Assembly: GCA_052327205.1 (NCBI GenBank)
Contig: JBMRGM010000043.1
Location: forward strand, 31,186,001 to 31,250,000
Source of the DNA: Somniosus microcephalus
Taxonomy: Eukaryota
Reading direction: 5' to 3'
Length of the DNA stretch: 64,000 bases
In this document: positions 1,238-64,000 of the stretch, in pieces
Numbering within the stretch: position 1 is the first letter of the stretch
Layout of the letters: each line of letters starts with the position of its first letter
Notes under the pieces: generated by a model
What the model was told of the DNA's origin: nothing
Seen by the model: only the letters and a program-made list of their open reading frames with translations
Databases searched by the model: none
Position numbers and translations under genes: made by a program

Positions 1238-1329
1238 GGTGACAACTGAAAATAGATCTGTACCTCCGAGTGAAGAAACATCTGCGAGCAATTTCGAGTA
1301 TGCAGTTGGGGGATCAGCCCCAAATACTG
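1238..1329 (+). CDS. Gene A cytoplasmic exon (VTTENRSVPPSEETSASNFEYAVGGSAPNT)
   Basis: aag| acceptor and g|gtaagc donor; clear homology to exon 29998-30083 and its downstream intron. Confidence 0.8.
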
Positions 1330-2309
1330 GTAAGCATGAACTGACACTTGAAAAATATGGTAGATTGTTCATGGTAACATTTGTTCTGCTGGTAACCCAC
1401 TGTCACATCAGTGGAAGTTCAGTGAAAACTTTAGGGAGACGGCCGTTTCACATGACTTGCACCAATATTCCGCCGACATTGCGACGGGACATGGTGGAAA
1501 TCGACCATGGACATTGGAGATCTTCATCTGCAAGCATTCAGCATATTTTGTTAGATTTATAACTTACTGCCTGGACAGGTAGCATCGCATGGGTTGAGCA
1601 TACGAAGGGAAATAGTTTGGGGTCGTTGGCACGGTCCATTTGAACCATGTTGATAGAAAGAAATGCAGGTGGTTCAGTAAAGGATGTGCCTGTTGCCCCA
1701 GCAGACTGAGCTGTCTGCGCTCTTTGCAGATGATGCTAACTGCTCCGACGCCAAGACAAAAAGCTACCCCTTATTCCCTTTTCCTTTTGAATTAATTATT
1801 TCCTCTACTTCTCATTCTTCTTTTTCTGAAGTTAGTGGGTCCCAATCGGCCGGGATTGATAGGAAGGCATCTGGGTGCTAGTCCATATGTGTTAATCTCA
1901 GAAACTGATAATCAGACATAATGAGCAATATCTTGAGTACTCAATTGACATTGGGACCTGTCTCCTCACAACCACTACAAATCAAATTTCCAAGCAAAGA
2001 ATGATGGAACTGGACCTCTCACCGCTATCTGGGTGAAAGGAATGGAGAGAATGAGAGAATGTGCTGCTCACCACCACCCTGTTTATAAGCAAGTGACTCA
2101 GCCCAGCCCCATGGCTTGGGACCAAGACACTTCATGACTTTGCTCACGGGACTTTGGATCAGCTTGTATTGATCAGGGTAAATAGTTGCTAGCTTTTAAA
2201 ACCAGTGAACACAGCTGTAAATTTCCAATCATGAATTGTAGGATGGGTCTGGTATCTAAGTGCTTCCTTGATTATCATTGATCGCAGTTTCCTCTTTCTC
2301 TCTCTACAG

Positions 2310-2366
2310 CTTCTAGTTCTGATCAGGTAACCTACAGTTTAGTAGAAGGCACGAAGCCCATGGAAG
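2310..2366 (+). CDS. Gene A cytoplasmic exon with ITIM VTYSLV
   Basis: Polypyrimidine tract + tacag| and gaag|gtaagg; 57 nt, phase 1-1; SSSDQVTYSLVEGTKPME. Confidence 0.85.
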
Positions 2367-3115
2367 GTAAGGAATCGCTGTGTTACTTTGCTAGAGGGCT
2401 TGTTAACTACTGTAAGTGTAGAGTCTGTCTTCAGTTTGTGAGACGTCATCTGGGAAGAGCCTGAATCGATTGATGCATTATAGGACTGACACCACAGTAC
2501 CAGTATTTGTAAAAGAAAAAATCACTATAGGCTCTTTGTAAGTTCCATCTCTCGGGATTAGTATCCTTAGAACCTGCACACAAACTCCCCTGTTCTGGTT
2601 TTTTGATAACATCATAACTGGCCGGACTATTAATGTTGCCATAAACTGCAATGACGATAACAAATGCTTAATATAAGTCGATCGATACATTTGAAGGCAA
2701 ATAATGTGTACTTTTGGTGGCAAACATCATCCACTCTTGGACATTTAAATCAATGCTATTCAATTAATGGTTATATATCATCCTTATTAAACTGATGGAA
2801 AAGACATGATCTATTCCCATGCACTATATTCATATTATGGATACTAATACGGTTGTCTCAATTCATTATCGCTATCAATTAATTTATATCAAGCAATCAA
2901 TCAGTCTACCTTTGTAAATGGCTATCCATTTATCCATCAATATGTTTCTATCTATGTATCTATCTATCTTTATATCTATTTTCCAAATATCTATATCTTT
3001 CTATCTATCTCCCCGTGTCTTCCTCCCTATTTCTCTATATATATCTATCGTCTCTCTATCATCTATATATTAATCCCTCGTTTTTGACTTGTTTTCTCTT
3101 TTTGTTTCTGTTTAG

Positions 3116-3181
3116 ATATTACCGGAAATGCTGCCAATTTAGTGTATTCGGAGGTCACTATCAGAAAGTCACGAGACTGTG
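3116..3181 (+). CDS. Gene A cytoplasmic exon with ITIM LVYSEV
   Basis: Strong T-rich tract + tttag| and tg|gtaaat; 66 nt, phase 1-1; ITGNAANLVYSEVTIRKSRDC. Confidence 0.85.
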
Positions 3182-3289
3182 GTAAATTCTGTGAATTGTT
3201 CGCTGCTGTTGCTAAGGGAGATGATAATTACAGTTCTAGATAATGTTGGGATATTCCTGTGCTTGGTATAGTGGGAATGAGGCACATGG

Positions 3290-5665: not shown

Positions 5666-5679
5666 ACTATGTTTTCTAA

Positions 5680-7265: not shown

Positions 7266-7553
7266 AAATATCACGTAGATGTTATTAGCACATGTAATTT
7301 TTACCTTACTCAGCCTGGCCGAAAATGGACAGGGTCTGGTGAAATGTCGGTTCTCAATCGCACCCATTTTTACTCTCCTACTACAATGGAGAGAAAATCC
7401 ACTGGGGATAAACCCAGAAATTGTCCCGATCCCTTCAGTTTACCGGTAGGGTAGGTGAGATTAAAATGACCCCGGATTAGGCTGGATTCATCTAATTCTG
7501 TTCATCAACTTCCCCAGATTGTTTCATTTATAATGCGTCTCCTTTATTTACAG

Positions 7554-7585
7554 GTAATGATGGTGGCGCCTCAGGAAGGAAACAG
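7554..7585 (+). CDS. Gene A cytoplasmic mini-exon (GNDGGASGRKQ)
   Basis: tttacag| and cag|gtaagt consensus sites; 32 nt, phase 1-0, which is required to join the flanking exons. Confidence 0.8.
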
Positions 7586-8767: not shown

Positions 8768-9068
8768 TTATCATCCCTTGTTTAAATTTAGTCGTTGGTT
8801 TATTCATTGCTCGTTTCATTCCAACCATTTTCTTTAATTTTTTTGCTATAAAATAAATTAAGAGAGGAATCATAAGTGTATTTTTGTGTGACCTCAGCCA
8901 GTTAATTGTCAGTAGTTTTGAACACACTGAAAATCGGGCGATATTGAATTCGCCATCCATTATCCATCTCTCCCGACTTCCCTTCCACTGAAATAACCAC
9001 TGATTCTACCTCGCCAGCTGTGCACCACCGCCTGAGACCAATTTCAGCTTCCTGTTCATTAATTCCAG

Positions 9069-9197
9069 GCTAACAAGAATGGTCCCAACGACTATTGTGT
9101 CACATACGCCATAGTTAACCGTGCAAACACTGAAGCTAGTTTGGAAGGAGGCCCAATGGAAGAAGGCTGTGTCTACGAAAACTTTCCACGGAAATAA
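9069..9197 (+). CDS. Gene A terminal coding exon with ITIM VTYAIV and C-terminal YENF
   Basis: ttccag| acceptor, phase 0; ANKNGPNDYCVTYAIVNRANTEASLEGGPMEEGCVYENFPRK*; AATAAA near 9778 and 9874. Confidence 0.85.
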   Translation, partial: ANKNGPNDYCVTYAIVNRANTEASLEGGPMEEGCVYENFPRK

Positions 9198-14121: not shown

Positions 14122-14152
14122 ATGATTCACATCTGTCGCCTTCTGACCTTGT
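14122..14152 (+). CDS. Gene B leader exon S1 (MIHICRLLTL)
   Basis: ATG + 31 coding nt ending t|gtaagt; same 31-nt phase-1 size as many FcR/FCRL first leader exons; 4 paralogous copies. Confidence 0.75.
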
Positions 14153-14721: not shown

Positions 14722-14723
14722 GC

Positions 14724-14757
<34 letters not shown>

Positions 14758-16885: not shown

Positions 16886-16915
16886 TGCAAATTACTCATC
16901 AGGCGACCACACAAG
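16886..16915 (+). CDS. Gene B leader mini-exon S2 (LQITHQATTQ)
   Basis: tcttctctcttgcag| and aag|gtatga; 30 nt, phase 1-1; conserved with splice sites in 3 copies. Confidence 0.75.
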
Positions 16916-19214: not shown

Positions 19215-19469
19215 CCCATGTCCCAGAAGTAGTCCTTAGCAATCCGAGCGATGGAATCGTGAAAGAAGGGGAGACATTTTACCTGCAGTGTCGATACAGA
19301 GGCATGAAAACATTGGCTTATTGGTATAAAGATGAGACTTATATTCATTTTAAATATATATTCTTTGAAAGATATGCAGATAGTCGCAGTGGAGCGTCTT
19401 ACCAGTGTTCAGTGCCGCTGCCTTGGTCCTCCTCTGAGAAGAGTAAACCTCTGGATTTAGTCACCATTG
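19215..19469 (+). CDS. Gene B Ig domain 1 (short C2-type, FcR D1-like)
   Basis: PEVVLSNPSDGIVKEGETFYLQC...WYKD...SGASYQC...SKPLDLVTI; 255 nt, phase 1-1, canonical splice sites. Confidence 0.88.
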
Positions 19470-21264: not shown

Positions 21265-21531
21265 CTTCTGATATGAATTTAACTCTGGAAGTGAATCCAA
21301 CATCCGCACTGTCAGGTGACAGTATTATCCTGAAATGTTTGATGCCTTCCTGGAAATGGAGAGAAGGTTTTCCCTTCCTGTGGTATCGAGATAAACAGTT
21401 AATAGCAGAAACTGACGAATCTCAGTACACCATAGAAAACGCAAAAGAGTCAGATACGGCACCATATCGGTGTGAACTCAAAATACGTTACAGGAAGTGG
21501 ATCTCCCCGAATGTAACCATCACCATAAAAA
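21265..21531 (+). CDS. Gene B Ig domain 2 (C2-type)
   Basis: LTLEVNPTSALSGDSIILKC...WYRDKQL...DTAPYRC; 267 nt, phase 1-1; donor a|gttggt matches paralog 54800. Confidence 0.85.
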
Positions 21532-22319
21532 GTTGGTCACTGCTTTTCTTTTTCATTTTCTTTATTTGATCTGGTAATGAGCTGTTGAAGGATGTGAAGT
21601 ATTCTAAGAATCCTTGGCCTATATATGACTGCACAACCACAGAAATGTGGTTGACTCTTAATCCCCTCTGAAATGGCTTGGCAAGCTACTAAGTTTTATC
21701 AAAGCACTAGAAAAAACTGTAAGATTAAAACTTGGAGGAACACCTGGCATTGAACTAGGCATCATATTCGGACACAGATAAGACACACAGTCAACCCTGC
21801 AAAGCCCTCCTCCCTAACATCTGGGGACTTCTGCAAAAATTGGGACAGCTGTCCCACAGACCAGTCAAGCAATAGCCTGTCATAGTGATGATCACAGAAT
21901 CATACCTTCCAACCAATGTGGTGCCTGGGTGGTGACAGAGTGATGTAACTGTGAATATTTGCAGAATTCACAGTGATCATAGTAGATGTTGAGACACAGC
22001 AGGGAATAGCGAAAAGAGCAAAGTTCTATTGAAGGATTCATACTTGAATAAGTCTTGCACAGCGTGGAGTTCCTGTATCAGCAGAATATATTAAGCAGAT
22101 TAAGTTCTCCGCAAACAAAGCAGCGAGTGGAAATCCATAACAATATAGTAATGCTGCCTACTGGAGTGTTCCACAATACAGCTGCTGGTTACCATTTAGT
22201 ACAGTCGCACCTCGTGGTGGTTCTTGGTATATCCTTGCTCTTGTTATCAATAATCTCTGCTATTTGTTTAACTATATGAGATGAATTCTTACCTCCCAAT
22301 CCATATTCTGTTTTCACCG

Positions 22320-22596
22320 AACTCTTCTCCAAACCTAAACTGAGGACTGAGCCTGCAGTTAAAATATTTGAGGTAGACCAGTTAAAATTCATTTTTTTAT
22401 TGAAACAATGCTGTTCAATATTAGGCTTCAATACACATTTCACAAAAATGGCAAAGCTCTGCAGTTGAATTCATACATCAACTCTAAGCACATGGGGGCA
22501 GCTTCTTTGAAGGGCTCGGTGACTTAGCCTTGTTGAGCAAATGCTTTCTACCACCGTGATAACAACAGAGTGATGAGGTTTCCATTACGGTAGAAG
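22320..22596 (+). pseudogene. Dead FcR D3-type Ig exon in gene B
   Basis: Homologous to 57686-57961 and 63757+, but the acceptor is cacag>caccg, with frameshifts, loss of the first Cys codon and stops. Confidence 0.85.
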
Positions 22597-24358
22597 GTAA
22601 ATAGAACCAGCTGTAATTACTGTTCATCTTTCATTTAAAGAATTCTTCAGGGGATTATAGATAAATAAATATACGGGAGGGATCCAATGTGGAAAAAGAT
22701 TTACTCCCAGCTTTATCACATAATAAATCAATTTTGGATGTGATCTGTTTAAATCAAAGCGCCACCTGGTTCTATAAAAAATCCATACATTTACTGAAAC
22801 CCACACTTGTAATAGCTGCAACGTTTGAAGACCAGTGTCCACTCCCAGTGGCTAATATTAGCTTCCTGCAATAGTGTCGAATGGGCGATACTGAATTTGC
22901 CTCCCATTATATGTCCCTCCCGTGTTTGCGTCGCATCATTATCATTGGACAGGAACATCGTGCGTGGTGTACAATTGGTGCAAGATTCGATACCACGCGT
23001 TTTACACCATGGATCCAAGGTCAAGTTACCTCCTCTGTTTCTGTCTGACTGAATCAGCAACGAGCAGAACCTGGTCAGGAACAGCACGGTGTTTAATCAG
23101 ACAGTGCCTTACCACTTATTAGTCCCGGCAATCGTTGCTAGCTGAAATCTCGGTGCTAAAATTTAACTTGGAGAGTGCAGTAGATAATTGGCAGACAAGG
23201 AAATCGAATTTCACCTGTGTGTAGATAGTATGGCCAATGAGCTACTACCGGTTTTGCACCCCAGACAAACTTGAATTTCCACCCCTCCAATTTCAGTAGA
23301 GGGGGATGACGGGGTGGCAAAACGCCGGAGGCTATTGAAGGCTGAGCCTCTGATGTCCGGCCTCTCGATTGCATTCAGTTAGAATCTGCCAATCATAACT
23401 CTATCTTTACATTTTAAAAGGAGCAGGCAATCAGAACACCAAGTGGGTGTTATCGATCCTGTGTCATCAGTGGATTTTCAAAGAATTGCATTGTCCATAG
23501 CTGAGCGTTTAACATGAATGTCCTAAAATGTGAAGGTTCGCACACGGGGATTGATCCGTGAAGTAAGGGCCTTACCTATATGTTCAACATGCACTGAATA
23601 CATAAATAACTAAATTATTGTCGCATAGACAACAGGGGAAAGGAAATAATAGCATGTTTATACAACACATTCGTGAGGCCACAGATACTGTGTCCAATGT
23701 CCTGCCTTCCATTTTAAAGAGAACAGTAAAATCACAGAAAACGGGAAGCGTTGATTCACCAGATGACGCCAGGGATGGAAAACCTTATTCACCAGAATAG
23801 ACTTGAGCTACTGGCACGAACACTACCGGAGTAGCCATGGCTAAGAGTTATTTCATTACTGTTTATTACATGATAAGACCGAGATAGGGTGATAAGGGAA
23901 TGGTATTTACTCTGATTGCGAAGACAGGAAGGAGGGATCATTGATGTATAATTATCAATATAAGCGGGAGGATAGCTTAGAAGAACGTTCTTTATTCGAG
24001 GATTGCTGGAACAAAGAATGATTGGCCAAGTGGAGCAGTGGAGTTAGATGCAATTGCATTTAGGTAGATAGTGTTTATGGTACTGGAATAGTGCAGAGTT
24101 AGTAGGAATCAGTACCAGGCCAGAGATAGTAGGGTGGCCACTAGTGGATTGCAATAGGAATCATTGCAGTTCCAGAATCAGTTTTTCCTCTATTAATTCC
24201 ACTGACTGCTGAAGTAGGAGAGGGGCACGGGCGCCCAAGATTGGAGTGGTAACCTAAATGACGAGGCTCTTTATTTTGATGAGAGCCCTATTTCACTTTG
24301 AAAGTAATACTACAAATTCCACAAAAGCAATGTAATTGACAAATGGTTATATTTACAG

Positions 24359-24646
24359 GAATCCCAGTGTCCAAACCGGAACTGGCAATCAGCCCTGGTA
24401 AAGAGTTACTGGAAGGTGACACAGCGTCGTTAACCTGCTCAGTGTTCAACGGTTCTACCCCGATTACCTACATATTCTACAAAGGCCCAAATAAAGAACT
24501 CTTCCGAGAGGAGTCCAACCTAACCGAAATTACTTACCAAATCGGTAAAGTCAACCAAAGCACCCAAGGGGATTATATTTGTGGTGTTTCAAACGAAGCG
24601 ACCAGACGTCCTCTACACAGCGATTTTGTTACGGTTGCAGTGCTAG
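24359..24646 (+). CDS. Gene B Ig domain, FCRL membrane-proximal (D4/D5) type
   Basis: IPVSKPELAISPGKELLEGDTASLTCSVFNGSTPITYIFYK...GDYICGVSN matches the PVSxP...C...GSxPIxYxFY...GxYxCxxxN pattern; 288 nt, tacag|...g|gtgagt. Confidence 0.88.
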
Positions 24647-25029: not shown

Positions 25030-25622
25030 TTGTATTTGTATATGGGATTGGGCGTCGCTGGCAACATTTGCGTTAATTGGCCATCCCTAATTGCCCTTGA
25101 GAAGGTAGTGGTGAGCCACCTTCTTGAACCGCTGCAGTCCACGTGGTGATCATCCAAATTCAGTACCCTGTCCCTGCTTTCTACCCACATCCCTTGATCC
25201 TGTTAGCCTTAAGCAACATATCTAACTCCTTCTTGAAAATAATTAATGAATTGGCCTCAACTTCCTTTTGTGGTAGAGAATTCCACAGGTTCTCCACTCT
25301 CTGGGTGAAGAAATTCCTCCTCATCTCTGTTCTAAATGGCTTACCCCTTATCCTTAGACTGTGACCCCTGGTTCTGGACTCCCCGACTATCGGGAACATC
25401 CTTCCTGCATCTAATCTGTCGAGTCCTTTTAGAATTTTATACGTTTTATTGAGATCCCCTCTCATTCTTCAAAACTCCAGTGAATATAAGCCCAATTGAC
25501 CCAATCACTCCTCATACGGCATTCCTGTCATCCCAGGTATCAGTCCAGTTAATCAGCGCTGTACTCCCTCCATGGCGAGAACATCCTTCCTCAGATAAGG
25601 AGAACATCCTTCCTCAGATAAG
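25030..25622 (-). mobile_element. CR1 3' fragment (25160-25622) plus a LINE/SINE tail (25030-25145)
   Basis: MRGDLNKTYKILKGLDRLDAGRMFP...WNSLPQ on the minus strand. Confidence 0.88.
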
Positions 25623-25812
25623 TTACTTGAGGGCCAACAGTTAAAACTCGCCTGTTTGGTTGAAATATTTCACTCCAGTTCAGCGGCAGACCACAACTAT
25701 TACATTAAGGAAACATCACGGCCTGACGATTCGGGGACTTACCTTGGTAAAGCAACTACTTTGCACAGCGAGGTGAAGAAACTGAACAATCAGGTTTCAG
25801 TTTCAGTCAGAC
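25623..25812 (+). pseudogene. Dead D3-type Ig exon decapitated by a CR1 insertion
   Basis: Homologous to 59291-59569; 5' end and acceptor replaced by LINE sequence, internal deletion of the FYKDG strand, second Cys position is Gly; donor c|gtgagt retained. Confidence 0.82.
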
Positions 25813-26005
25813 GTGAGTACAATTTACTGCAATTATCTATCATCTTTCATCCACTAAATTACCAACACATGCACACAATGGGATTCTTCATTCTGGCACA
25901 GGGCTTATCTATATGTTTAAGATGCACTGTATAAATAAATGAATATATCCGTACATACTTGAAACCGTATTATGTTATTCATGGGATATGTTTATTTTAT
26001 TCCAG

Positions 26006-26107
26006 TGCAGATTCACACAACCGCGATCAGAGCCTCAGTTTTTACACTTTTTCTTGTTGCTGCCCTGATTGCACTGGTACTCGTCAATCGTCCCAACAAG
26101 AAACAAG
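26006..26107 (+). CDS. Gene B transmembrane exon with charged Arg (QIHTTAIRASVFTLFLVAALIALVLVNRPNKKQ)
   Basis: tttattccag| and aag|gtgagt; 102 nt, phase 1-1; hydrophobic run followed by a basic stop-transfer segment. Confidence 0.88.
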
Positions 26108-26631: not shown

Positions 26632-26662
26632 AAAATTCTTCAAGAATTTCACAATCGTTTGG
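26632..26662 (+). CDS. Gene B cytoplasmic mini-exon (ENSSRISQSFG)
   Basis: cttcctgttttatccag| and gg|gtaagt; 31 nt, phase 1-2, fits both neighbours. Confidence 0.8.
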
Positions 26663-29997: not shown

Positions 29998-30083
29998 GGA
30001 GGCAACTAGAAACAGACCTCCAAGTGAAGAGAATTCTGCAGACAATTCCGAGTCTGCAGGTGTGCGATCAGCTCAAAGCACCG
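29998..30083 (+). CDS. Gene B cytoplasmic exon (EATRNRPPSEENSADNSESAGVRSAQST)
   Basis: cttag| and cg|gtaagt; phase 2-1; paralog of 1238-1329 with Tyr>Ser. Confidence 0.8.
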
Positions 30084-31050: not shown

Positions 31051-31073
31051 GTCATTAATCTCTGATATTACAG

Positions 31074-32525: not shown

Positions 32526-32529
32526 CAGA

Positions 32530-38049: not shown

Positions 38050-41000
38050 TGGACACATTTTTTAAACACAGTCAGCACTGAATGTGTAAGATATTCCATT
38101 GCCCTGCATGTCTGCAATTAGATGGCTAAACTTATCTAGAGTGCAAAAATTAACGTTAAATTATAATTAGAATATTGGCTCTGTAGAGCCAAGTTAACGG
38201 TTACCTGGAGTGAGCCAGATGCTGGGACGAGATTGGGCAGCTAAAGCAGATACACTGGATAAGCCTGTGTTTAGGCTTCAGTAATTTGTGAGTTGAATCG
38301 CCTCTTTGTAAAACACCGGGTTAAACTCTCGGGACTTTAATGGTTAATGGTGCCAGTGTGAAACACGTTCAGTGGTCACAGCTCACATTAGTTGCAGCCC
38401 TTCACCTCGGTTCCCTCTCAACCGTTGTGCCAGGCCACACACACAGAGCGGGTCTGACCGCTTCCGTAAACCCGTGAAAATAACAATCCTTCAGCCTGGG
38501 GCCACAGATCAGTCCAGTCTATGTGTTAACGGTACAAGATGCGCTTACAATAAATCATGTTCAAAACAGTTTCCAGAGATGTCTCCGGCCTGTATTCCAA
38601 CTGTTCGCTTCTGATAAGAATGTATTTTAAAACTGCCAGGGCTAATTTCACGTTTCAACGTTAGGGTGAACTCGTCATCACGGTTTAAGTTCCCCTTTTC
38701 TCCAATGTGGTCAGAAGTCACACTGATCTCAGTGCGCAGTCGCGTGGTGCATGGGCAGTGAGCTCCACAGCTGCAGACTGCTCTCGTGGAACTCGCTCCA
38801 GCCGCTGTCTCCTCATTCCCCATAAGTACAGACTCGGGATCTGCGCGTGTGGGCGTTTGGTACTGAAGAAGTAGAACAGTGTCATCGGCTGAATGTGGGC
38901 GGGTACATTTGTCGGGAACAGGAGTGGGAAGCGGAGCAATGCGCTTGGGAATAGATTGTTCTGTGTTTGACGGAATCGATCTGTTCTGGCTCTCAGTGCA
39001 AATGTTCACCCACACCTGACTAAATAGAGGCTGCATTGAAAAAAAAAAATATATGATCCATGAGTTCTTAAAAATTGGCTTGGCTCTCTCGAAGGCGAGT
39101 GACTGTCTGCAAAGTGGAAAAATGCAATGATTTGGGGAAAGGGCAGGGGAGTGGGATCAGTTAGCAAGTGCTTTCGAAGATCCGGCACAGGCACCAAGGG
39201 CCGAATGGCCTCCTTTTGTGCTGTATGATTCTATGACCTCACTTTTCAGTTAAAATGAACTGAAAACAGCTGAACCGAAGCGAGCGGTTTCACAGATGGA
39301 ATGGAGCTTCTGCTTGGAGCCCCCGCTTTCTAAATGAAGAACATCTGTCGCCTTCTGATCCTCTGTAAGGGAATCTCAAATATCACTAGTGCCTTTGAAA
39401 ATCTGCGTCATTCACCCCGGACCCACAATCAGATTAATAAGGCTCATTCTGTAAAAGGCAGCGACGCACTAAATGGATATTGACAGTTTCTGAAAGTAAG
39501 ACATTTATTTAAAATGCGTTGAAATGTCCTTACTATGTTTCAATTTTAATCTGAATTTAGTGCAACAATACTGGGTTTGATTCGTCAGGGTAACAGGATC
39601 TTTCTGCTCATCTAAAGAGATCCACTTTACTATAACAGGTTGCTTCTAAACAGCATAATATTTTTGCTTTACCAATTATTTAGCCTCACCTGCAGAAACA
39701 GCTTTCAAATGTCTAATTTTTTTAGTTTTGTTTATAAGTAGGAATTAACAGCTTATGCACTTCATATGAAGTGTCGGCGTTGTCCCATTTGTTTCACTCT
39801 TACTAAATGCTATTAATAAATGCAGTGAGCTTTGCAGTGCTTGGTTTCTGTGGCTAGCTGTTAATCTTGGTCTAAAGCATTGCTTCATGGTTTTGTGTGG
39901 CACAGGCTGGCTTCTTGTTTAACATCTGCTATAGAGAGACTGGGATAAAGATAGATTTATAGAGAGATAGAGAGGGACAAACTTTCACACAGACACAAAC
40001 ACACACACACAAGCAGATAACGAAAAATGCAGAGAGAGACCGAGACAGAGATAGAGTCAAAGAGAGAGAGATGGATTCAATGAGTCAGAGTGAAAGAGGA
40101 AGATTAACACACGAGAGAGACAGAGTCAAAGAGATACCTCAAGTCATAGACACAGATGACTGAGAGAGAGACACACAAAAAGAGGCAGAGAGAGAGAGAA
40201 CATGAGGGAGAGACAAGGAGGTACAGACACATAGTTAGACACACAGGTAGAATGGAACAACATGCAGTGGCACAGATAGCCAATGAGAGAGATAGAGCGT
40301 CAAATAGACAGAGAGAGAGCAACAGAGAGTGACATGCAGACAGTTACACTGACATATAAGGCAAGTCAGAGAGAGAGTGAGACCGAGAGTTATAGAGGCA
40401 AACAGATGAAGACCGGGAAAGTCTGACAGAGAAAGATTCAGCAAGGGACAGAGAGAGAGAGCCAGAGACAGACAAGCAGAAGGTAAACATTCAGGGAGGC
40501 GGTGGGCTAGAGATTCCGTGAGAGAGAGCGAAAGAGAGAGAGGCAGAGCGAGAGACACACAGATAGGGACAGAGCGAGACAGAGAGAGAGCATTAGTTTT
40601 TTTTCACTCACCTATGAGCAAACATAATGATTATATTTTTAAAATTACTGGTGTAAGGGAGAGCAACATACCAGGCACCATTTTGAATTTCAGGCTCATT
40701 TAATATCTGCTGCCAAACCTGGAGTTAACAAAGCTGAAGAGATAACAGTTACTTTGATTTAGCTTGAACTAAACTGACGGCTTCAAGGATTTTGGCAACG
40801 AAATTTATAATTATAGATCTTTAATGTTAATGTCTGATGCAATTTACTGGCATTTAGACTGGAGTGATTCCTTACGGTCAAATGTCATTGAGACTGCCTT
40901 GCTGTGAGATGCTGATGTCAGCGCTCTGTTGTCTGGTTAGCCAATGCACCACAAGAGATGAAAACAGGAACAAATAACGGGGTTTGCATCTTTAGTGTAC

Positions 41001-43340
41001 CACAGGCTCTTTTAGCAGAACCTCATCTATTTTAATAACAAGACATTAGTTGTGGGACCATGTCAGCCACAGCTAGTTCCACAGCTTAATGCGGTAAATC
41101 TTAAATGATGATAAGTAATTCTTAACTTGTCTGTTCTTGACCTTATAATCGCCCCCATGTTTTATTTGTTGCACAGCACATAAAATCCACCTTGTGAAAA
41201 AAATTGGCCAAATTAAATACTTGAATCATTCACCTCATTGAATCCTAGCTGGACAAAAGGCCCAGGTTCTACATGCTAAACAAGGAAATACACACACATC
41301 TGCATTGATCATTGACTTTTTTGCAATTATTTTTGAAAAGGTTGCAGCATTAGGCGTTGCCTTAGTAGTGTGATTCCTCTGGTCTGAGGCGTGATAAAAT
41401 ATTTCTGCAGCCAGCTGCTTGATCATGCACTGTCTTCACGAGCAACATTTGCCACCCAGTCAAAACTTGTGATGCTGATTAGGCTAAAGATGATTTAAAT
41501 GATGATAGAAACATTTGAAATGGAGTAGCCCATTCAGCCCTTCGAGGCTGCTGATTTTTCATTCAACTATACAATGGGTGATCTGTACCTCAACTCCAAT
41601 GACCCCCTTTTGCTCAATATACATTGTTGCCCTCGCTCAACTAGAGTCAGCCGTGGCTCAGTGAGCAGCATGCTCGACTCTGAGTCAGAAGGCTCGTGCA
41701 TTCAAGTCGCACTCCAGAGATTTGGGCAAAAAATCTGGGATCAAACTCCAGTGCAGTGCTGTGGGAGTGCAGCATTTTCAGAGGCGCCGTCTTTCGGATG
41801 ATACGTTAAAGCGAGGCCCCGTCGGGGAGATTATCCCCGGTGCCCTGGGCAATATTTGTCCTTCAGTCAACATAACATAAACAGATTATCTGGTCATTAT
41901 CATCATCACTGTGTGAAAATTGACTGCTACTCTTCCTACAGTGACTACACTTCAAAAGTACTCCACTGGCTGCAAAGCGCTTTGGGAAGTCCTGAGGTTG
42001 TGAATGGCGCTCTAAAAATGCAAGTCTTTCTTTTTTTAACTAAAATATATCTTGATCGCCGTATTGGCCGTTCCAATTTACCACCAGATTCCACAGCGCT
42101 CTTAGCGGAGTGAGTTGCAATTTCTCAATACACAATGCATGAAAAGGTGCTTCCTGATTTCCATCCTAAATGGACTATCACTAATTTTGAAGAAATGTTC
42201 TCTTCTCCATGACAGAACAAACACACTCATTGGCTCTCAGAACAATGGCTCATTTCAATCTTTGTCAGTTTCCTTTCATCCGGCAGCAACTTTCCCATGT
42301 AGTACTCAGACCATTAGGATCTTCAACAATAAAAACATCTTATCTTTCTTCGTGAGATGGTCAATTGACATAATTCGATGTATTAATATTTTACATTTAC
42401 ATCAACAGAACTGAATACCTGGCAGAACGTATAGACTAGCAGCAAATGTGGTACCGCCTGTTTTGTGTCCCTGCCGAAGTCGAATTTCTCCCCCTGGGTA
42501 TTTCCTCTTCAGCTGCCTTACAGATGAGCAGCTTTGGTCAAATTTGAAGATGGTCTCAGATAATGAAACACATTTTACATTGTCTTCTCTCTTTCAGTGC
42601 AAGTTACTCATCAGTCGAACACACAAGGTATGATGACAATAATCTGCATTATTGATAATGCATTATTGATAATCCAGTTTGTGGAATGAACGCTTCCAAT
42701 TTATAGCTATAGGACAGCAGCAATCAAGCAATGAAGTCATTTTCAGCTTCCGCCCGAGCGTGAAACTGCGTTCTGGAATCGCCACCTATAATGGAAAAGC
42801 TCGATCATCATTTTCATTGATTCAGGGTGAATTGAAAGTGGGCGGTTTCTCTAATGGTCGGCCAATCAGAACCCCATTTGTAAGCCTCAACGTAAAGTTT
42901 AATGTCTACCACAATATATTAAAGACAAAGTGACCTATAAATTGGTGTGGGTAACTGTCAGCTCATCAGCTGAGGATTGGAAGCGTGTAATCATAATTGA
43001 GTAAATAAATGGATGGATAGATCGACAGGTCTAAGATGAAATAACAACAAATGTTGATGAAATTAGGGTGTTACTCTTGTGATTAGACTTTGCAAAAGCG
43101 CTTAATGAAGTTCCACATAATAGACTTGTTTGTGAAATAGAAATCAAAGTATTAAGGACAACATAAGGGGCATCAGCTTATCATAAGAAGGGACACGTGA
43201 CCTTCAATTGCCACGATTGTCGCTATGGCTTTTCGGGTTATAGATCTATTGATCGTTAATCAAGTGCTTTTAAGGAAATATTCTAAAGGATGTCATACCT
43301 GTACTTTAACATATTCCAATATATACTTACTTTATATTTC
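38050..43340 (+). pseudogene. Gene stub 1: promoter + S1 (39334-39364, MKNICRLLIL) + S2 (42598-42627, LQVTHQSNTQ), with all Ig exons deleted
   Basis: Colinear with 47125-52500; ends with a fragment (43170-43340) of the intron that precedes Ig exon 2 (54340-54530). Confidence 0.75.
39930..40590. repeat. Degenerate GA/CA-rich tract (paralog at 48620-49290)
   Basis: Purine-rich low complexity. Confidence 0.85.
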
Positions 43341-43344
43341 TTCT

Positions 43345-46300
43345 GAGTAATATACAACATTTTCAGTCTGTTGTTATCTACATATCGATGTATCTCTTTT
43401 TGATTGTCTTACCATCTATCTAAGTATCTGTCTGTTTATTCATCGACAGTATAGCAAATAATCAAAGGCAGGCACCAATAGGACAGATTAGGTTCCAGTC
43501 ATAAATTGTATCAGTAAAATAGTCCAGGTACTAACCATAGACCTGTATCATTAGGACAGTGTAATTGATAAACATAGGCCTGTATGAGTAGGAAATAAAG
43601 TTTGAAAAATGTGCCGATACCAAAAGGACAGTATAGTTACAAATCAAAAACCTGCAGCAATAGGACAACATAAACAGTCATCAAAATACCTCAGCCAGTA
43701 TGACAGATAAGGTATTAATCATAGGCCTGCATCAATAGGACGGTATAGATAGATAATGATTAGAGACATGCAGCAGTCGGACACTGCAGGCATTAATCAT
43801 AGACCTGTATCAGAAGGACTGTGAATGTACTGAGCATTGACCAGCACCAGTAGGGCTATATATGTTGTAATTACTAACTGCATGAGTAGTAAATTAAAAG
43901 TTCCTTATCTAGTGCCTCTGTGTCGCATCCAGTTCTAGACCAACACCAATAGAACTGTGGAGATTCTAAATAGATTTCACTGCAGTAGTATAGAGTTGGT
44001 ATTTATCGGCGATCTGGGCAATGGGGACAGTATAGCTACTAAAAGCTGACCTGTACTAGTGGTGGAGTCAAGTACTGATGACATACATTCTGCAGTGGGA
44101 GAGTCGAGGCAGCAAAAATAGACCTGCACCAGTAGGTGAAACCTAGAGAGAGCTCCAGAGAGGAACAGAACTATGCGGCTCAAGGAGTCGCCCCATATAA
44201 TCCTGGTTTTAGGCTTCATTAATTTGAGTCGAATCACCTAGTTGCTAAACATTACTGACTGGATTAAACTCTCGGGACTTAAATGGTTAATTATGCCAGG
44301 GTGCAACAGTTTCAGTGGTCTGATGTTTCACTGGTATTAGCACTTCGCCTCCGTTCCCCCTCTACAGATGTACCAGGCCACACACACAGAGCTGGGGTGA
44401 CCACTTCCCTAAGCCCTTGAAAAAAACAAGCCTTCAAACTGGGGCCACAGAGCAGGCCAGTTTCTCTTTTAACGTTATAAACTGCGGTTAGAATAAATCA
44501 TATTGAAAACAGTTTCAAGCGATGACTCCGGCCTGGAATCCAACTGTTCTCTTCTGATAAAAATTAATTTTAAAACTGACAGGGCTCAGTTAACTTTTCA
44601 GCGTTAGGTTGGATTCGTCACCGTGTACGGTTTAATTTCCTCTTGTCTCAAATGTGGTCAGAAGTCAAAGTGATCTCAGTGTGCAGTCGCCTGGTGCATG
44701 GACAGTGAGCCCCACAGCTGCAGACTGCTGTCGGGGCACTCGCTCCAGCCGCTGTCTCCTCATTCCCCATAAGTACAGACTCGGGATCTGCGTGTGCGGG
44801 CGTTTGGTACTGAAGAATTAGCACAGAGTCAGCGGCTGAATGTGATTCTATGATCTCACTTTTCAGGTGAACAGAACTGAAAACAGCTGATCCGAAGCTC
44901 GCGTCTTCACAGAGGGAGGTGGACTGCTGCTCAGGTCCCCCGCATTCGAAATGAAGCACATCTGTCGCCTTCGGATCTTCTGTAGGTGAATCTCAAATAT
45001 ATCCAGTGCCTTTGAAAATCAACGCCACTCACCCCTGACCGTTAATCAGGTTAATAAGACTCATCCCGTGAGAGGGATCATCACACTAAATTAATATTCA
45101 GAGTTTATTAAGTTCAAACATTCAATTATACTGCATTGAAATGTCATTTCCATGCTTCAGTTTTAATCAGAATTTAGTGGAACAACAGAAATAAATTTGA
45201 TTAGTCAGGCTAACAGGATCTTTCTGCTCATCTAAGGTTGCAGCCGACTTTAGACACATCTAAACGGTCCAATATTTATTATTTTACCAATTATTTAGCC
45301 TCACCTGCAGAAACTGCTTGCACTTTTCTTATTGTTGTCGTTTTGTTAATTAAAAAAAAAAATTCATGCGCTTCATATCAAGTTTCAGCGTTGGCTCAGT
45401 TGACTCACTCTTACAAATTGCTATTAATACATGCGGTGAGATTTACAGTGTGTGGGTTCTGTGGGTAGATGATAAACTTGGTGCATGTCATTGCTTGATG
45501 ATTTCGAGTGCGGCAGGCACGCTTCTTGTTAACAACTGCCACAGAGAGAGAGAGAAAGAGAGAGAGGGGGAGAGAGGCGGAGCGGGAGAGGGAGTCAGAG
45601 CGAGATACAATCAGATAGGGACAGAGAGAGACAGATAGACAGAGATTGTAAGAAAGTAACAATGAAGCTGTCCACGAAGGAGAGTGACAGAGAGAGGGAG
45701 AGAGGGCAGGAGTTTTTTTTTCAACTCAGTTTTGCAGATTCACTATATGAAGGGCTTATTTTATTTTCTGTTGTGAGGGAGAAAATACACATTAACGGGA
45801 CGACATCCCTTGAGTTAATAAAGCTGAGGAGAACAAATTTACTATGATTTTACTTGACCTAAACTGACGGCTTAAGGGTGTTTGGCAGGGAATTTTAAAA
45901 TGCTGGATCTTTAAAATTAATTTCTGATGCTGTTTACTGGAATTTAGACAGAAGTGACTCTTTATGGTTACAGGACATTGAGGCTGCCTTCCTGTGAGAT
46001 GCTGACGTCAGCGCTCTATTGGCTTGTTAACCACTGGATCACAAGCCCAGCAAACAGGAAAAAACAACAGGGTTTGCATCTTTAATGTACCATCGACTCT
46101 TTCGCCAGAATCTCATCTATTTTAACAACTTGACATTAGTTGTGGGACCATGTTGGTCACAGCTAGTTCCACAGATTAATGAGGTAGAGCTTAAAATATG
46201 TGGTTAATCTCAAATTGTTCTTGAGCTTATAATAAGCCACATGAGTTATGTGTTGCACTGCACGTAAAACCCACTTTTTGGAAAGAATTGTCCTAACTGA

Positions 46301-48004: not shown

Positions 48005-48035
48005 ATGAAGCACATCTGTAGCCTTCTGATTTTCT
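48005..48035 (+). CDS. Gene C leader exon S1 (MKHICSLLIF)
   Basis: ATG + 31 nt, t|gtaagt. Confidence 0.72.
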
Positions 48036-51964: not shown

Positions 51965-51994
51965 TGCAAATTACTCATCAGGCGACCACACAAG
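51965..51994 (+). CDS. Gene C leader mini-exon S2 (LQITHQATTQ)
   Basis: ctctttcag| and aag|gtatga; identical to gene B S2. Confidence 0.75.
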
Positions 51995-53290: not shown

Positions 53291-53542
53291 CTCCTGGGCC
53301 GGAAGTGCTGGTTAGTTTTCCCAGCAGTGGTGTGGTAAAGGAAGGAGAGGAATTTAAGCTGCAGTGTCGATACAGTGGCAAAGCTATTTACACTAATTGG
53401 TTAAAAAATAATATACATTTACATGAACTTCAGAGTGAGTTTTATGAATCACTAGCAGACAGCAGCAGTGGAGGCTCTTACCAGTGTGATGTATGGTCAA
53501 ACAAATCGGAGAGGAGTGAGGCTCTGGAAGTGGTCACAATCG
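53291..53542 (+). CDS. Gene C Ig domain 1 (FcR D1-like)
   Basis: PEVLVSFPSSGVVKEGEEFKLQC...WLKN...SGGSYQC; 252 nt; paralog of 19215-19469. Confidence 0.88.
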
Positions 53543-53594
53543 GTAGGTGAACTTTGACACTTAATATCATAGAAAATAGACAAAAGACAGAATA

Positions 53595-54539: not shown

Positions 54540-54800
54540 CTTCTGATATGATTTTAACTCTTGAAGTAAAACCAAGAGCCACGTTGTCAGGTGAAAGTAT
54601 TATCCTGAATTGTTTGGTGTCTGACCAGAAAGGGAGAGGATACTTCCTGTGGTATCGGAAAGAAGAGATAATACATGGAAGTTCTCAATCTCAGTACATC
54701 ATAACTAAAGCAGAAATTGCAGATGGGGCATCTTATCGGTGTGAATGCAAAATAGGCTACAGGAAGTGGGTCTCGCAGGAAGTAAACCTCACCGTAACAG
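54540..54800 (+). CDS. Gene C Ig domain 2
   Basis: LTLEVKPRATLSGESIILNC...WYRKEE...DGASYRC; 261 nt; paralog of 21265-21531. Confidence 0.88.
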
Positions 54801-56381: not shown

Positions 56382-56636
56382 ATGGCGATGTGGCCTTCCA
56401 GGTCGGCCCACCTTCGGTTTTGGAAGGAGATGTTCTGAATCTGAATTGTCGGTACAGAAAATATTATTTGTGGAAAGATGTTGGCTTTTACAAAGGAAAT
56501 AGAAGGATCCACTCAATGAAGTTGTATTATTGGAACGCTCTGCATAGCATTAGGGTGAATAGTTCAAAAGACAGTGGATCATACCATTGTACTATTGACG
56601 AGAAAATTTCTCGAAGTGTTCATGTTCACGTTCACG
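56382..56636 (+). CDS. Gene C Ig domain 3 (FcR D2-type)
   Basis: VAFQVGPPSVLEGDVLNLNC...KDVGFYKG...KDSGSYHC resembles the FcR D2 pattern (LLLQ..VFEGD.L.LRC..V.F.+.G..KDSGSYxC); 255 nt. Confidence 0.88.
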
Positions 56637-57685: not shown

Positions 57686-57961
57686 AACTCTTCTCCAAAC
57701 CTAAACTGAGGACTGACCCTGCAGTTGAAATATTTGAGGGACACCAGTTAGTATTCATCTGTATTATTGAAACAATGCCGTACAGTAATGGGCTTCAATA
57801 CTCATTTTACAAAAATGGCGAAGCTCTGATATTGACTTCATACAACACATTTAAGCTCAGGGAGACAGCTTCTTTGAAGGACTCGGGGACTTACCTGTGT
57901 GAAGCAAATATTTCCTACCGCGTTGTGAAAAAGAGTGATGAGGTTTCCATTGTGGTTAAAG
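57686..57961 (+). CDS. Gene C Ig domain 4 (FcR D3-type)
   Basis: ELFSKPKLRTDP..IFEGHQLVFIC...LQYSFYKNG...DSGTYLCEA...VVKKS is the FcgammaRI/FCRL D3 signature; 276 nt. Confidence 0.9.
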
Positions 57962-59290: not shown

Positions 59291-59569
59291 AGGTCTTCTC
59301 CATACCTACACTGAGGGCTGAGTCTGGAGCTCAATTATTTGTGGACCAACAGTTAAATCTCGCCTGTTTGGTTAAAATATTTCGATCCAATACTTCCTTG
59401 AGACTCGTATTTTACAAAGATGGACAATCTCTCACTTCAGCGGCAGACAACAACTATTACATCAAGAAGGCATCTCGGCCGGACGATTCGGGGAATTACT
59501 GGAGCGAAGCAACTACTTTGAACAGTGAGGTGAAGAAACTGAGTAATCAGGTTTCCGTTTCAGTCAGAT
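59291..59569 (+). CDS. Gene C Ig domain 5 (second D3-type; F-strand Cys>Ser)
   Basis: EVFSIPTLRAE...LNLAC...LRLVFYKDG...DDSGNYWSEATT...VKKLS; 279 nt, open, canonical splice sites. Confidence 0.78.
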
Positions 59570-60641: not shown

Positions 60642-60899
60642 ATCGCAAAGTGGCCTTCAATGTCGACCCACCTTCGGTTTTGGAAGGAGGTGTTCTGAAT
60701 CTGAATTGTTGGTTCAGAATGCATTATTGGAGGCATAAAGATGTTGGCTTTTACAAGGGCAATATAAGGATTCACTCAATGAAGTTGACCGATCGGAGAG
60801 CTCTGCATAGCATTAGAGTGAATAGTTCAAAAGACAGCAGATCATACCATTGCACTGTTGGCAATAAGGAATCACGAAGTGTTCATGTTCACGTTCAAG
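60642..60899 (+). CDS. Gene C Ig domain 6 (duplicate of the D2-type exon)
   Basis: VAFNVDPPSVLEGGVLNLNC...KDSRSYHC; 258 nt; close paralog of 56382-56636. Confidence 0.85.
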
Positions 60900-61035
60900 G
60901 TACGTCGGCAATATTTCAATTGGCGATATCGCTCTTGGATATTTATCCATATTACAGGTCCGAGAGGTTCTGAATCTGTCCACATTTATGCATAGCTGTG
61001 TGAGCTCGGAAGAATTTGTTCGTGTTAGGTCATAG

Positions 61036-61754
61036 AGGCCTTGAATTTCCGTTCGGCGGTTTCCTGCCGGTAGATGCCTCCAATCGGAAACAAATCTACG
61101 AACTTACCTGCTGGTTTGGAGAGCCCGAGGCTTCCGATCCTGGGCCTCTCCTGTTGGAAATGCGCAGAGGCCCAGGTATCCCAGGGGCACATACGGTTTG
61201 CAAGCGCTCCTGGGATCACGTGAGAAAGGCGAACAAATCAAAGAAGGGAATCCCCCTTCATACATTTGACAGGTCTGTAGGGACTGAACTGTCAAAAGTA
61301 TGATTGGGAACCACATTTAAAAACACACTAAAACAGTAAATAAACTATTTAAAATTACAAAATTAAAATGAATTAAAATTCCATTTAATTAAATATTTTA
61401 AACATAATTTATAGAAAAAAAATTAAACATTTTTACTGGGCTATAAATAATTTACCGTTTCAAGAGTATTTCTAACTTATAAGTGAGTGATCAAATTTGT
61501 TATTTCTAACTTTCATCACTCTTATGCCTACTTTTACCAGTCGGACGAATTCTACAGCCTTTCAGCTGCCGGAAGTTGTGCAAACTCTCCAGCCACAGAG
61601 GCTCTTTTCTTGGGCAAGTGGATCATCTGTCAAGAGAATTCTTGACAGATCGCAGGTGCCGGTTTTAAGCGCATACCTGAAATCGGTACCTGCAAGGCCC
61701 CTATGGGTGAGTACACAGCTCGTATGCACCCGTGGGGGTTGGAAAACTTGGCCC
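61036..61754 (-). mobile_element. MITE-like element, copy 3 (inverted, more diverged)
   Basis: Reverse-complement similarity to copies 1 and 2; absent from the paralogous intron near 56770. Confidence 0.72.
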
Positions 61755-62569
61755 ATGATGGCTGTCTAACACCGTGCTACTTTAGCCAATAATTAACCCA
61801 GGGTGGGTCTCCTCCCGTGCTAACGCCGGCAGCTTTCTTTCTCCTCCCGCCCCACCTCAGAGGAGAATTTGGCGGCTTCCCATTACCAGCCTGTTACATC
61901 AAGAGGCTGACGGGGAGTATTCCCCCACTAAACCGAAATATGATGGTGCCTCTCTCCCTAACAACCACGATGATGAGTTGACAAAATGCACCAGCAGGTA
62001 CTCCTGAAAATTCAGTGGTGGGTCCGCTGATGGACTGTGTGGAAGGACACAATAAGCAGTGTGCTCCTCTCCCCTCTCTTTTGCCCTTTCCACTTACCTG
62101 TTTGGCATAAGCTTAATCACAGGCTCCTAATAAAATCTGTACACTAATGCCATTGGATGCCCTTATCATCGCAACGGGTGAGTTATATCATCACTGATCC
62201 ATCACCCTGGCCGGGAGAATCGGGAGTCTTTTTAATTTCAGATGGTGACAGCTGAGCTGGGGGCTGGCTAGGGACAGAGCAATGTAGCTGTGGATATTGG
62301 TGGAGCTCACCCTGGTCATACTAGATGGTGAAGACGCAGCAGAGAATGGCTAAAAGAGAAAAGATCTAAGGGAGGATATTCCTGCTGATAATTAAGCCTT
62401 GCCCAGTATGGAATTCCGGTTTCAGCAGAATAAATTAAGCAGGTTAAGTTCTCCGCAAACAAAGCAGCGAGAGGAAATCCATAAAAACATAATAATGCTT
62501 CCTGCTCTAGTGATCCACAATACAGCTGCTGGTTACCATTAAGTATAGGCGCCCATCGTGGCTATTCTC

Positions 62570-63660
62570 TAGATGTAATCTCTCCAAATTTGCAGACAAC
62601 ACAAAGCTTGCTGGGCGTGTGTGCTATGAGGAGGATGCCAAGAAACTCCAGGCTGATTTGGAGAGATTGGGTGATTGGGCAAAAGCGTGGCAGATGCAAT
62701 ATAACGTGGATAAATGTGAGGTTATCCACTTTGGTGGCAAAAACAGGAAGGCAGATTATTATCTGAATCGCAATAGATTGGGAGAAGGGGAAGTGCAACG
62801 AGACCTGTTTTTCCTTGTGCACCAGTCGCTGAAGGTAAGCATGCAGGTGCAGCAGGTGGTTAAGAAGGGAATTGGCATGTTGGCCTTCGTAGCGAGATGG
62901 TTTGAGTACAGGAACAAGGATGTCTTGCTGCAGTTATACAGGGCCGTGGTGAGACCACACCTTGAGTATTGTGTGCAGTTTTGGTCAGCTTATCTGAGGA
63001 AGGATCACAGATCACAGAAACCCCACAGTGCAGATAGAGGCCATTTCGGCACATATCCCACCCAATCCCCGTAACCCCTACACCAAAACATATCCCCATT
63101 TAATCCCCCTAACACTAAGGGTCAATTTATCATAGCCAATCAACCTAACCCGCCATGGAAGGAGTTCAGCGAAGATTCACCAGGCTGATACCTGGGATGG
63201 CAGGAATGACGTATGAGGAGAGATTGGGTCGATTGGGCTTGTCCTTGCTGGAGTTTAGAAGAATGAGAGGGGATCTCATTGAAACTTATAAAATTCTGAC
63301 GGGACTGGACAGACTAGATGCAGGAAGAATGTTCCCGATGGTCGGGCAGTCCAGAACCAGGGGTCACATTCTAAGGATAAGGGGTAAGCCATTTAGGACA
63401 GCAATGAGGAGGAATTTCTTCACCCAGAGAGTGGTGAACCTGTGGAATTCTCTGCCACAGAAGGCAGTAGAGGCCAATACATTAAATATATTCAAGAAGG
63501 AGTTGTATATATTTCTTAAGGCTAAAGGGATCAAGGGGTATGGGGATAAAGCAGTGACCAGGTACTGAATTTGGTTGATCGGCCATGATCGCATTGAATG
63601 GCGGAGAAGGCTCGTGGGGCCGAATGCCAACTCCTGCTCCTATCTTCTATGTTTCTATGT
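62570..63660 (+). mobile_element. 5'-truncated CR1 with a nested inverted HE1-SINE 3' half (63005-63153)
   Basis: RPHLEYCVQFWSAYLRKD|SINE|MEGVQRRFTRL; flanked by ttctc direct repeats; absent from paralogous introns near 22220 and 57590. Confidence 0.9.
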
Positions 63661-63756
63661 TTCTCGGTATTGGCTTGCTCTTATTATCAATCTCTGCTAT
63701 TTGTTTAACACAGTGATAGGAACTGTTACCTATCAATCCATATTCTGTTTTCACAG

Positions 63757-64000
63757 AACTCTTCACCAAACCTAAACTGAGGTCTGAGCCTGCAGTTGAA
63801 ATACTTGAGGGAGACCAGTTAAAATTCATCTGTTTTATTGAAAATATACCGTCAAATATTTGCTTAAAATATTCATTTTACAAAAATGGCACAGCTCTGA
63901 TCTTGACCCCATACTACAAATATATTCTCACTGAGGCAGCTTCGTTGAAGGACTCAGGGACTTACCAGTGCGTAGCAAATGCTTTCGACTTTGGTGTGAA
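63757..64000 (+). CDS. Gene C Ig domain 7 (duplicate D3-type exon, runs off the window)
   Basis: tcacag|; ELFTKPKLRSEPAVEILEGDQLKFIC...YSFYKNG...DSGTYQCVANAFDFGV, open to the window end. Confidence 0.85.

Follow-up and report, generated by a model that had tools for sequence, protein, structure and literature searches.

The 64,000-nucleotide (nt) stretch of DNA analysed here, called the window below, comes from the 6.45-Gb assembly of the shark Somniosus microcephalus (C43:31,186,001-31,250,000, C43 being the window's contig) and is a slice of a large array of receptor genes with immunoglobulin (Ig) domains. Our data point to a recently amplified family of Fc receptor (FcR)-type receptors, in which a shared front is placed either on a tail with immunoreceptor tyrosine-based inhibitory motifs (ITIMs), likely to be inhibitory, or on a transmembrane (TM) segment carrying an arginine, predicted to signal through FcRγ, and in which the fast-changing first domain likely tracks a changing ligand other than Ig. 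This explanation is considered a probable one, without being secure. An earlier sequence-only reading had noticed FcR-like receptor genes in the window and had described them as a cluster of three tandem paralogs forming a paired inhibitory/activating family of elasmobranch origin. The receptor genes are real and are confirmed here, and the nearest proteins to the family are indeed those of sharks and rays.

Exons were read by hand from the sequence and then compared exon by exon, and the counts of variable sites and the binomial were also worked by hand. Domain types are those of the best PDB hit only, with a fold search added for the first domain of the short gene. Human gene positions (1q23, 19q13.4, 17q) are general background, as are signalling roles unless a paper is named. 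Papers are given by PMC number; PMC7916592 served as a source of criteria and background. Genes 1 and 3 of the earlier description are called here copies n and n+1 of the long gene, and gene 2 is called the short gene.

The last part of the window recurs in the DNA upstream of it, at a distance of 69,783 nt, which makes genes 1 and 3 one and the same nine-domain gene, present in neighbouring units. Instead of three tandem paralogs there are two genes in each unit of about 70 kb, this unit recurs about ten times, and the cluster that had been taken as the whole locus is a part of a larger array. In the genome at least 43 sequences match the short gene's D5-type exon (150 of 165 candidates scored), at least 39 of them on C43. 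Between 30.39 and 31.76 Mb of this contig ten copies at 99–100% identity, which represent the short gene, are interleaved with ten at 82–85%, which represent the long gene; the D5 matches on C43 also include older paralogs. The TM exon has at least 40 matches (40 of 46 candidates scored), all on C43 at 21.5-31.9 Mb. At least 19 of the 30 TM exons that were fetched have an Arg codon, eight have a Thr codon and three were not read. Both types are the same exon, with AGA in place of the inhibitory ACA. The array evolves by birth-and-death with domain shuffling. At 25.28, 25.65 and 30.29 Mb of C43 (L013, L014), on the borders of the clusters, lies a divergent subfamily that includes exons of D2 and D5 type.

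The window contains the 3' tail of one long-gene copy and the 5' front of the next. The triple-ITIM tail proposed for gene 1 is borne out, as five tail exons with three consensus ITIMs (VTYSLV, LVYSEV and VTYAIV) lie within 1238-9197. The LVYSEV and terminal-exon patterns are found once each in the window, in this gene only, where shuffled sequences expect 0, and the tail layout agrees with RefSeq models of other sharks, e.g. P0005. The Ig, TM and first tail exons of copy n are upstream of the window (L004, L001), with the uncharged TM exon just upstream at L001:8552-8653, and copy n+1 gains two further Ig exons, a TM exon and ITIM exons beyond the window (L002/L003). The short gene (14122-30083) consists of a leader pair, three open Ig exons, an Arg TM exon and two Tyr-free tail exons. 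The TM Arg and the lack of cytoplasmic Tyr that had been described for it are seen in the TM exon and in these two clear tail exons, which is as far as the gene was read, the end of the tail beyond them not being established. The window's copy does not have the intact D3 exon that follows the broken one in 7 of 10 copies.

The proposed pairing holds in a modified form. Inhibitory and Arg forms both exist; the neighbouring genes in the window share only 51% identity in domain 1 and 54% in domain 2 and thus are not the matched pair. Matched pairs do occur in other parts of the array, among recombinant short-gene copies. By position, the TM exon that follows the short ectodomain is of the Arg type in 6 of 10 copies and of the Thr type in the other 4, and ITIM exons are present behind both of the Thr copies that were checked (2 of the 4). 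The Thr copy at 31.35 Mb has IIYSVV, LVYSEV and VTYASV, together with a duplicate first-ITIM exon in which Tyr is changed to His and an extra C2 exon, and the one at 31.76 Mb has LVYSEV and VTYATV. Between an Arg copy (L055) and a Thr copy (L059) there is no difference in the first exon or in the 701-nt intron downstream of it, which points to a recent exchange. The Arg lies near the N-terminus of the TM segment, as in the activating receptors of the leukocyte receptor complex (LRC) and of the Xenopus XFL family, where it marks the partners of FcRγ; assembly with FcRγ has been reported for XFL TM1 receptors (PMC2413239). The shark genome has two matches to the zeta/gamma family, on C14 (CD3ζ-like by eye) and on C40. 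The best PDB match of the C40 exon is FcRγ (E 1e-12, against 1.5e-9 for CD3ζ), and this FcRγ (FCER1G) TM exon is placed at L007:1492-1596 (C40:10.607 Mb), 0.34 Mb from NDUFS2; its ITAM (immunoreceptor tyrosine-based activation motif) was not seen. An FcRγ gene, as read from its TM exon, is thus available to pair with the Arg forms.

The domains themselves are of the FcR type. The split leaders of the short and long genes (31 nt + 30 nt) resemble the N-termini of RefSeq shark relatives, and ten open phase-1 Ig exons with AG/GT ends were read in the window, in line with the split leader and phase-1 exons noticed earlier; Pfam calls Ig for 8 of the 10, the misses being the exon without its second Cys and the second D2 exon. 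A two-exon signal peptide with one phase-1 exon per Ig domain is characteristic of FcR/FCRL genes (PMC2413239). All three window copies have a second leader exon of 30 nt instead of the 21 nt expected from the 30/21 rule of FcR/FCRL genes, a rule that only a fraction of XFL genes follow (PMC2413239). In the PDB search exon 56382 matches FcγRI D2 best; exon 57686, of D3 type, matches FcγRI and then FCRL5 and FCRL4; exon 24359, of D5 type, matches residues 453-532 of FCRL5, with a whole-chain score inflated by the FCRL5 repeats; exon 21265 matches FcγRI and FcεRI; and exon 53291 gives generic matches, with FcγRIII at E 0.003. In the fold search with the modelled first domain of the short gene, FcγRs take ranks 1-7 and CD22 rank 8, with narrow margins. 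The D1/D2/D3/D5 types assigned earlier are therefore borne out by best hit in 4 of the 5 exons searched and by the predicted domain-1 fold.

A family of PECAM1/CD22-like adhesion or glycan receptors is very improbable. Automatic annotation gives several RefSeq relatives the name 'platelet endothelial cell adhesion molecule-like', the protein search that found them also lists true PECAM1 proteins among its low-ranking hits, and the rank of CD22 could be read in the same way. However, an FcγR or FCRL is the top PDB match in 4 of 5 window exons, the fifth being generic, the first domain is not V-set, and a separate PECAM1-like gene exists on C21 at 69.8-69.9 Mb, so the array is not orthologous to PECAM1. 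On C21:69.78-69.92 Mb (L010, L011) PECAM1-like exons occur at two sites about 120 kb apart with similar second domains; PECAM1 has possibly been duplicated there. FcR and FCRL proteins also outrank LILR for the window domains in the PDB and fold searches, and the domains are thus not of LILR/KIR type. The array agrees with FcR/FCRL genes in domains and exons and departs from them in its leader length and in the absence of 1q23 linkage. Because of these two departures and of its non-LRC domains, it is filed under neither FcR/FCRL nor LRC.

The first domain of the short gene changes fast. In the nine copies that have the first exon there are 14 single-base sites in 252 nt, all 14 non-synonymous by hand reading, and one in-frame 6-nt deletion. 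The next intron has six sites and one indel in 701 nt, so that the density in domain 1 is 6.5 times higher. The exon-versus-intron binomial is about 6e-5, and 14 of 14 non-synonymous sites has a chance of about 0.02 if about three quarters of changes are assumed to be non-synonymous; it counts against our interpretation that these two figures allow neither for the non-independence of the sites (gene conversion could import a patch) nor for the choice of the exon after its variation had been seen. The second exon of the short gene has three non-synonymous and two synonymous sites. In the domain-1 model (predicted local distance difference test, pLDDT, 90.8), ten of the 14 sites would lie in loops, six in BC, two in the C'/C'E turn and two in the FG turn. 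The BC, C'/C'E and FG loops form the tip of an Ig domain.

By analogy with LILR, PIR and XFL receptors, the ITIMs, once phosphorylated, would bring in SHP-1/2 and restrain the cell, and the Arg form would join the FcRγ dimer and activate the cell by way of the dimer's ITAM and of Syk. New domain-1 variants could pass from one tail to the other by unequal crossing-over within the 70-kb array, and a ligand exploiting the brake could thus also meet the trigger. The ligand that the first domain likely tracks would be, for example, a protein on the surface of a pathogen or a self molecule that is polymorphic, and not the constant Fc of an antibody.

It could also be that some members are true Ig Fc receptors for IgM, IgW or IgNAR, standing behind the IgM-dependent opsonisation and killing in sharks, with the long gene and its D2-D3 core as the candidate. 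The D2 and D3 exons match FcγRI best and in the same order, FcγRs lead the fold search, the first two exons of the long gene are nearly invariant among copies, and bamboo shark B cells express genes named fcgr1a-like, fcrl3 and fcrl5 (PMC11372145), which may belong to the family of the array. A constant ligand agrees poorly with rapid change and with a domain content that varies, and the classical FcγR/FcεRI TM signature (M/L)Fxx(D/N)TxL is absent from the TM exons read. The Trp in the BC loop of FcγRI D2, which has a role in Fc contact, aligns with an Arg in exon 56382. Ig binding has moreover been argued to be a late specialisation of the FcR family (PMC2413239). The speed at which domain 1 changes, the missing Trp and the lack of 1q23 synteny weaken the case for Ig binding, which is regarded as unlikely, and a fast-changing ligand is held to be likelier than Ig Fc.

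Still less probable is an array consisting mostly of decaying or over-assembled copies of one inhibitory receptor, with the Arg form as a truncated, non-signalling by-product. Exons are broken in many copies, one Arg copy has lost both front domains, no Arg form is seen among the 24 RefSeq relatives read, and the cluster's left end is present at two places 5.0 Mb from each other, as a real duplication or a second haplotype. Against this, the Arg codon is kept in the majority of fetched TM exons, some of which are only 86-93% identical to that of the window, the copies have their own substitutions, indels, exon losses and orientation, and all 14 domain-1 changes leave the frame open. Expression gives no evidence either way: no exon-exon joints, and hence no spliced reads in favour of the genes, were found among the matches listed from two RNA runs of unknown tissue, whose reads come mainly from repeats (LINE-type fragments), with few faint sense-side reads touching exons and introns. 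For the stretch 53200-60950 no RNA run was listed.

Several of these observations, the missing joints among them, also weigh against the receptor family with shared fronts that we favour. A 23-nt frameshifting deletion is present in the third Ig exon of gene 1, the only one of 10 aligned copies to have it, the first D3 exon is broken in 3 of 11 long copies, Ig exon 6 has a stop in 4 of 11, one Arg-type TM exon (L028) has a non-GT donor reading TT, and the copy number could be inflated by assembly. The first exon of the long gene, with four non-synonymous and two synonymous sites (9 of 11 copies aligned), has no excess. In the TM segment the Asn of the NxxR motif is absent, Thr being at its position. 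An Arg at the TM position is found in none of the 24 elasmobranch RefSeq proteins with a TM segment that were read, so the activating form may be lineage-restricted or under-annotated, and the pairing may be particular to this lineage. A search for shorter relatives gave four proteins, and the two shark ones that were read have no TM segment. Three relatives in other species (P0016, P0028 and P0009) have a basic residue (Lys or Arg) one or two residues ahead of the Arg site and, in addition, tails with Tyr motifs, possibly a mixed-signal form.

The surroundings of the array were compared with the human FcR and LRC regions. C43 holds every one of the 113 matches to D3 and 43 of the 44 to D2. 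The 1q23 markers are on other contigs, UFC1 and PRCC on C41 and NDUFS2, FCER1G and MPZ on C40, and linkage of the array to them is thus absent (the SLAMF8/IGSF9/DUSP23/TAGLN2 group was not searched); genome searches with the markers PEN-2 and SDHC gave no match, and PIGM on C5 and CCDC47 on C24 do not help to place C43. On C43, NDUFA3 (16.22 Mb) and PRPF31 (16.29 Mb) are 73 kb apart, and an exon of the TSEN family (26.44 Mb), presumably TSEN34 by its motif, and a tweety gene (26.9-27.1 Mb) lie between the two sub-clusters. A simple LRC synteny is opposed by the position of CNOT3 and DNAAF3 on C28 and not C43, by the 9-15 Mb that separate NDUFA3-PRPF31 from the main clusters, and by the tweety exon, whose best PDB match is TTYH2, so that it is TTYH1 by elimination only. 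The last tweety exon is matched twice at C43:26.89-27.08 Mb, 60 kb apart, which suggests that tweety is locally and partially duplicated.

Only one D2 match falls on C41 (E 0.065); it lies 1 Mb from UFC1, and several C2 exons were found from it, in tandem, at C41:46.20-46.22 Mb (L071:4211-9833, L072:6302-6652). One of them, folded alone (pLDDT 82.6) and searched with the same tools as the window's first domain, has OSCAR, CHIR-AB1, LAIR1 and LILRA5 as first matches, and judging from this model the exons are a candidate shark LRC-type receptor gene. Another C2 exon, at C28:42.237 Mb (L012:5314-5610), 190 kb from CNOT3, is 32% identical to the C41 exon, and its full-length PIR-B and LILRB1 matches are weak. 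With few markers and one folded exon, the FcR/LRC arrangement looks reversed relative to mammals. It may be suggested, tentatively and with less than even confidence, that sharks preserve a snapshot of the common ancestor of FcR and LRC, with the mammalian arrangement turned round: the FcR-type paired receptors have LRC flank genes for neighbours, and the LRC-type domains lie next to a 1q23 marker. In that case FcRγ, paired signalling and the two domain types would all go back to the earliest jawed vertebrates, and the array, under diversifying selection, would be a place to search for the shark IgM Fc receptor.

A 2014 survey describes sharks as having no homologs of FCRL, of FcRγ or of C2-only LRC genes (PMC4016189), and a review of June 2026 likewise describes FCRL genes as lacking in cartilaginous fish and asks how sharks manage antibody-driven phagocytosis (PMC13337447). 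The bamboo shark genes mentioned above are listed by name, with no analysis in the part available (PMC11372145), and shark IgM papers of 1988 and 1997 are cited in PMC6795676. The literature check called for by the sequence-only reading found no dedicated description of a shark FcR-like paired family in the literature searched; subscription journals or supplements could hold one. Judged from its sequence, the genome has counterparts of all three kinds reported missing, FCRL, FcRγ and LRC-type, which would place their origin as far back as the root of the jawed vertebrates. The array thereby provides named candidates for the shark IgM Fc receptor, which is reportedly known from the title of a 1988 paper, and its matched activating and inhibitory copies with fast-changing tips are a natural set for ligand hunts. 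The paired-receptor principle and the automatic FCRL-like annotation of relatives are already known, which limits the surprise.

Coordinates of the receptor-gene features in the window (positions of the 64,000-nt stretch)
Feature	Position	Strand	Remark
Long gene copy n, cytoplasmic exon 2	1238..1329	+	non-consensus Tyr, FEYAVG; matching stretch in RefSeq shark protein P0005
Long gene copy n, ITIM 1 exon	2310..2366	+	VTYSLV; sequence reading
Long gene copy n, ITIM 2 exon	3116..3181	+	LVYSEV; sequence reading and pattern search
Long gene copy n, 32-nt spacer exon	7554..7585	+	RefSeq P0005 has a stretch that matches
Long gene copy n, last coding exon	9069..9197	+	ITIM 3 (VTYAIV), terminal YEN, stop; sequence reading and pattern search
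Short gene, leader exon 1	14122..14152	+	31 nt counted from ATG, phase 1; placed by likeness to leader matches
Short gene, leader exon 2	16886..16915	+	30 nt; resembles N-termini of RefSeq P0003, P0007
Short gene, first Ig exon	19215..19469	+	FcR-like fold (model); hypervariable among copies
Short gene, second Ig exon	21265..21531	+	FcR D1/D2-like
Short gene, broken D3-type exon	22317..22597	+	stops, frameshift; ends approximate
Short gene, membrane-proximal Ig exon	24359..24646	+	D5 type
D3-type exon fragment	25621..25813	+	internally deleted, beside LINE piece; start approximate
Short gene, TM exon with Arg	26006..26107	+	AGA at 26029-26031; inhibitory forms have ACA, Thr
Short gene, cytoplasmic exon 1	26632..26662	+	no Tyr
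Short gene, cytoplasmic exon 2	29998..30083	+	homolog of 1238-1329, Ser replaces Tyr
Duplicated upstream modules	39334..44981	+	extra leader exons 39334-39364, 42597-42626, 44951-44981
Long gene copy n+1, leader exon 1	48005..48035	+	31 nt; sequence reading and likeness among leader matches
Long gene copy n+1, leader exon 2	51965..51994	+	30 nt; sequence reading
Long gene copy n+1, Ig exon 1	53291..53542	+	paralog of short-gene first exon, 51% identical
Long gene copy n+1, Ig exon 2	54540..54800	+	
Long gene copy n+1, Ig exon 3	56382..56636	+	D2 type
Long gene copy n+1, Ig exon 4	57686..57961	+	D3 type
Long gene copy n+1, Ig exon 5	59291..59569	+	D3 type, second Cys lost
Long gene copy n+1, Ig exon 6	60642..60899	+	D2 type
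Long gene copy n+1, Ig exon 7	63757..64000	+	D3 type, cut by window end

The ATG just ahead of leader exon 2 of the short gene was rejected as a start, since that frame stops before the acceptor, and a degenerate ITIM-2 exon suspected by eye at about 31065-31114 was not placed by alignment. The D3-type exon without its second Cys (59291-59569) is still open both in the window and in the upstream copy. Between 38000 and 52300 the upstream module, with its extra leader exons, is present three times in tandem, each copy being 4-5 kb long; the copies within 39334..44981 have no Ig exon of their own among open reading frames of at least 80 amino acids, and they are possibly alternative promoters or remnants of deleted genes. 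LINE-type reverse-transcriptase fragments are scattered at 4686-7092, 17900-18800, 24990-25600, 32700-35300 and 62500-63640.

Among known sequences the closest are the RefSeq shark and ray models ('Fc receptor-like protein 2/3/4/5', 'PECAM-like'), which occur in about 14 species, so the family is widespread. They share the leader type, the domain types and the tail layout and are 55-66% identical on D5; their names are automatic, and those read that have a TM segment lack its Arg, as described. With mammalian FCRL1-6 and FcγRI the array has in common the D1/D2/D3/D5-type domains by best PDB hit and the multi-exon ITIM tail, and FCRL5 presumably has nine domains like the shark long gene. It differs from them in lying off the contigs with 1q23 markers, in its roughly 40 TM exons and in having neither the classical FcR TM signature nor the Trp of the D2 BC loop. 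The LRC receptors (LILRA/B, PIR-A/B, OSCAR, FcαRI and chicken CHIR) resemble the array in their N-terminal TM Arg and in near-identical ectodomains on opposite tails, and NDUFA3, PRPF31, a TSEN-family gene and a tweety gene are found on the contig of the array. The array ectodomains are nevertheless FcR-type and not LILR/KIR-type, and the LRC-type domain is found elsewhere in the shark genome (C41), with CNOT3 and DNAAF3 on C28.

Teleost LITRs have been described as related to both FcR/FCRL and LRC receptors (PMC4810170). No protein named LITR turned up in the protein search with the shark domains; the nearest matches outside elasmobranchs are sturgeon proteins named FCRL5, at only 25-30% identity. 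In Xenopus, XFL is likewise an expanded cluster of FcR-type domains shuffled into many architectures, with a two-exon leader, phase-1 Ig exons, and Arg-TM and ITIM forms intermingled in similar numbers (PMC2413239). XFL TM1 differs in having NxxR and a single exon for TM and tail, and SLAMF8/IGSF9/DUSP23 are linked to one of the XFL clusters (PMC2413239). In the shark the Asn is absent and the tail exons are separate from the TM exon, the Arg exon is the inhibitory TM exon with other changes besides that from ACA to AGA, and the second leader exon is 30 nt and not 21. The array would work like the paired receptors of the XFL and LILR families.

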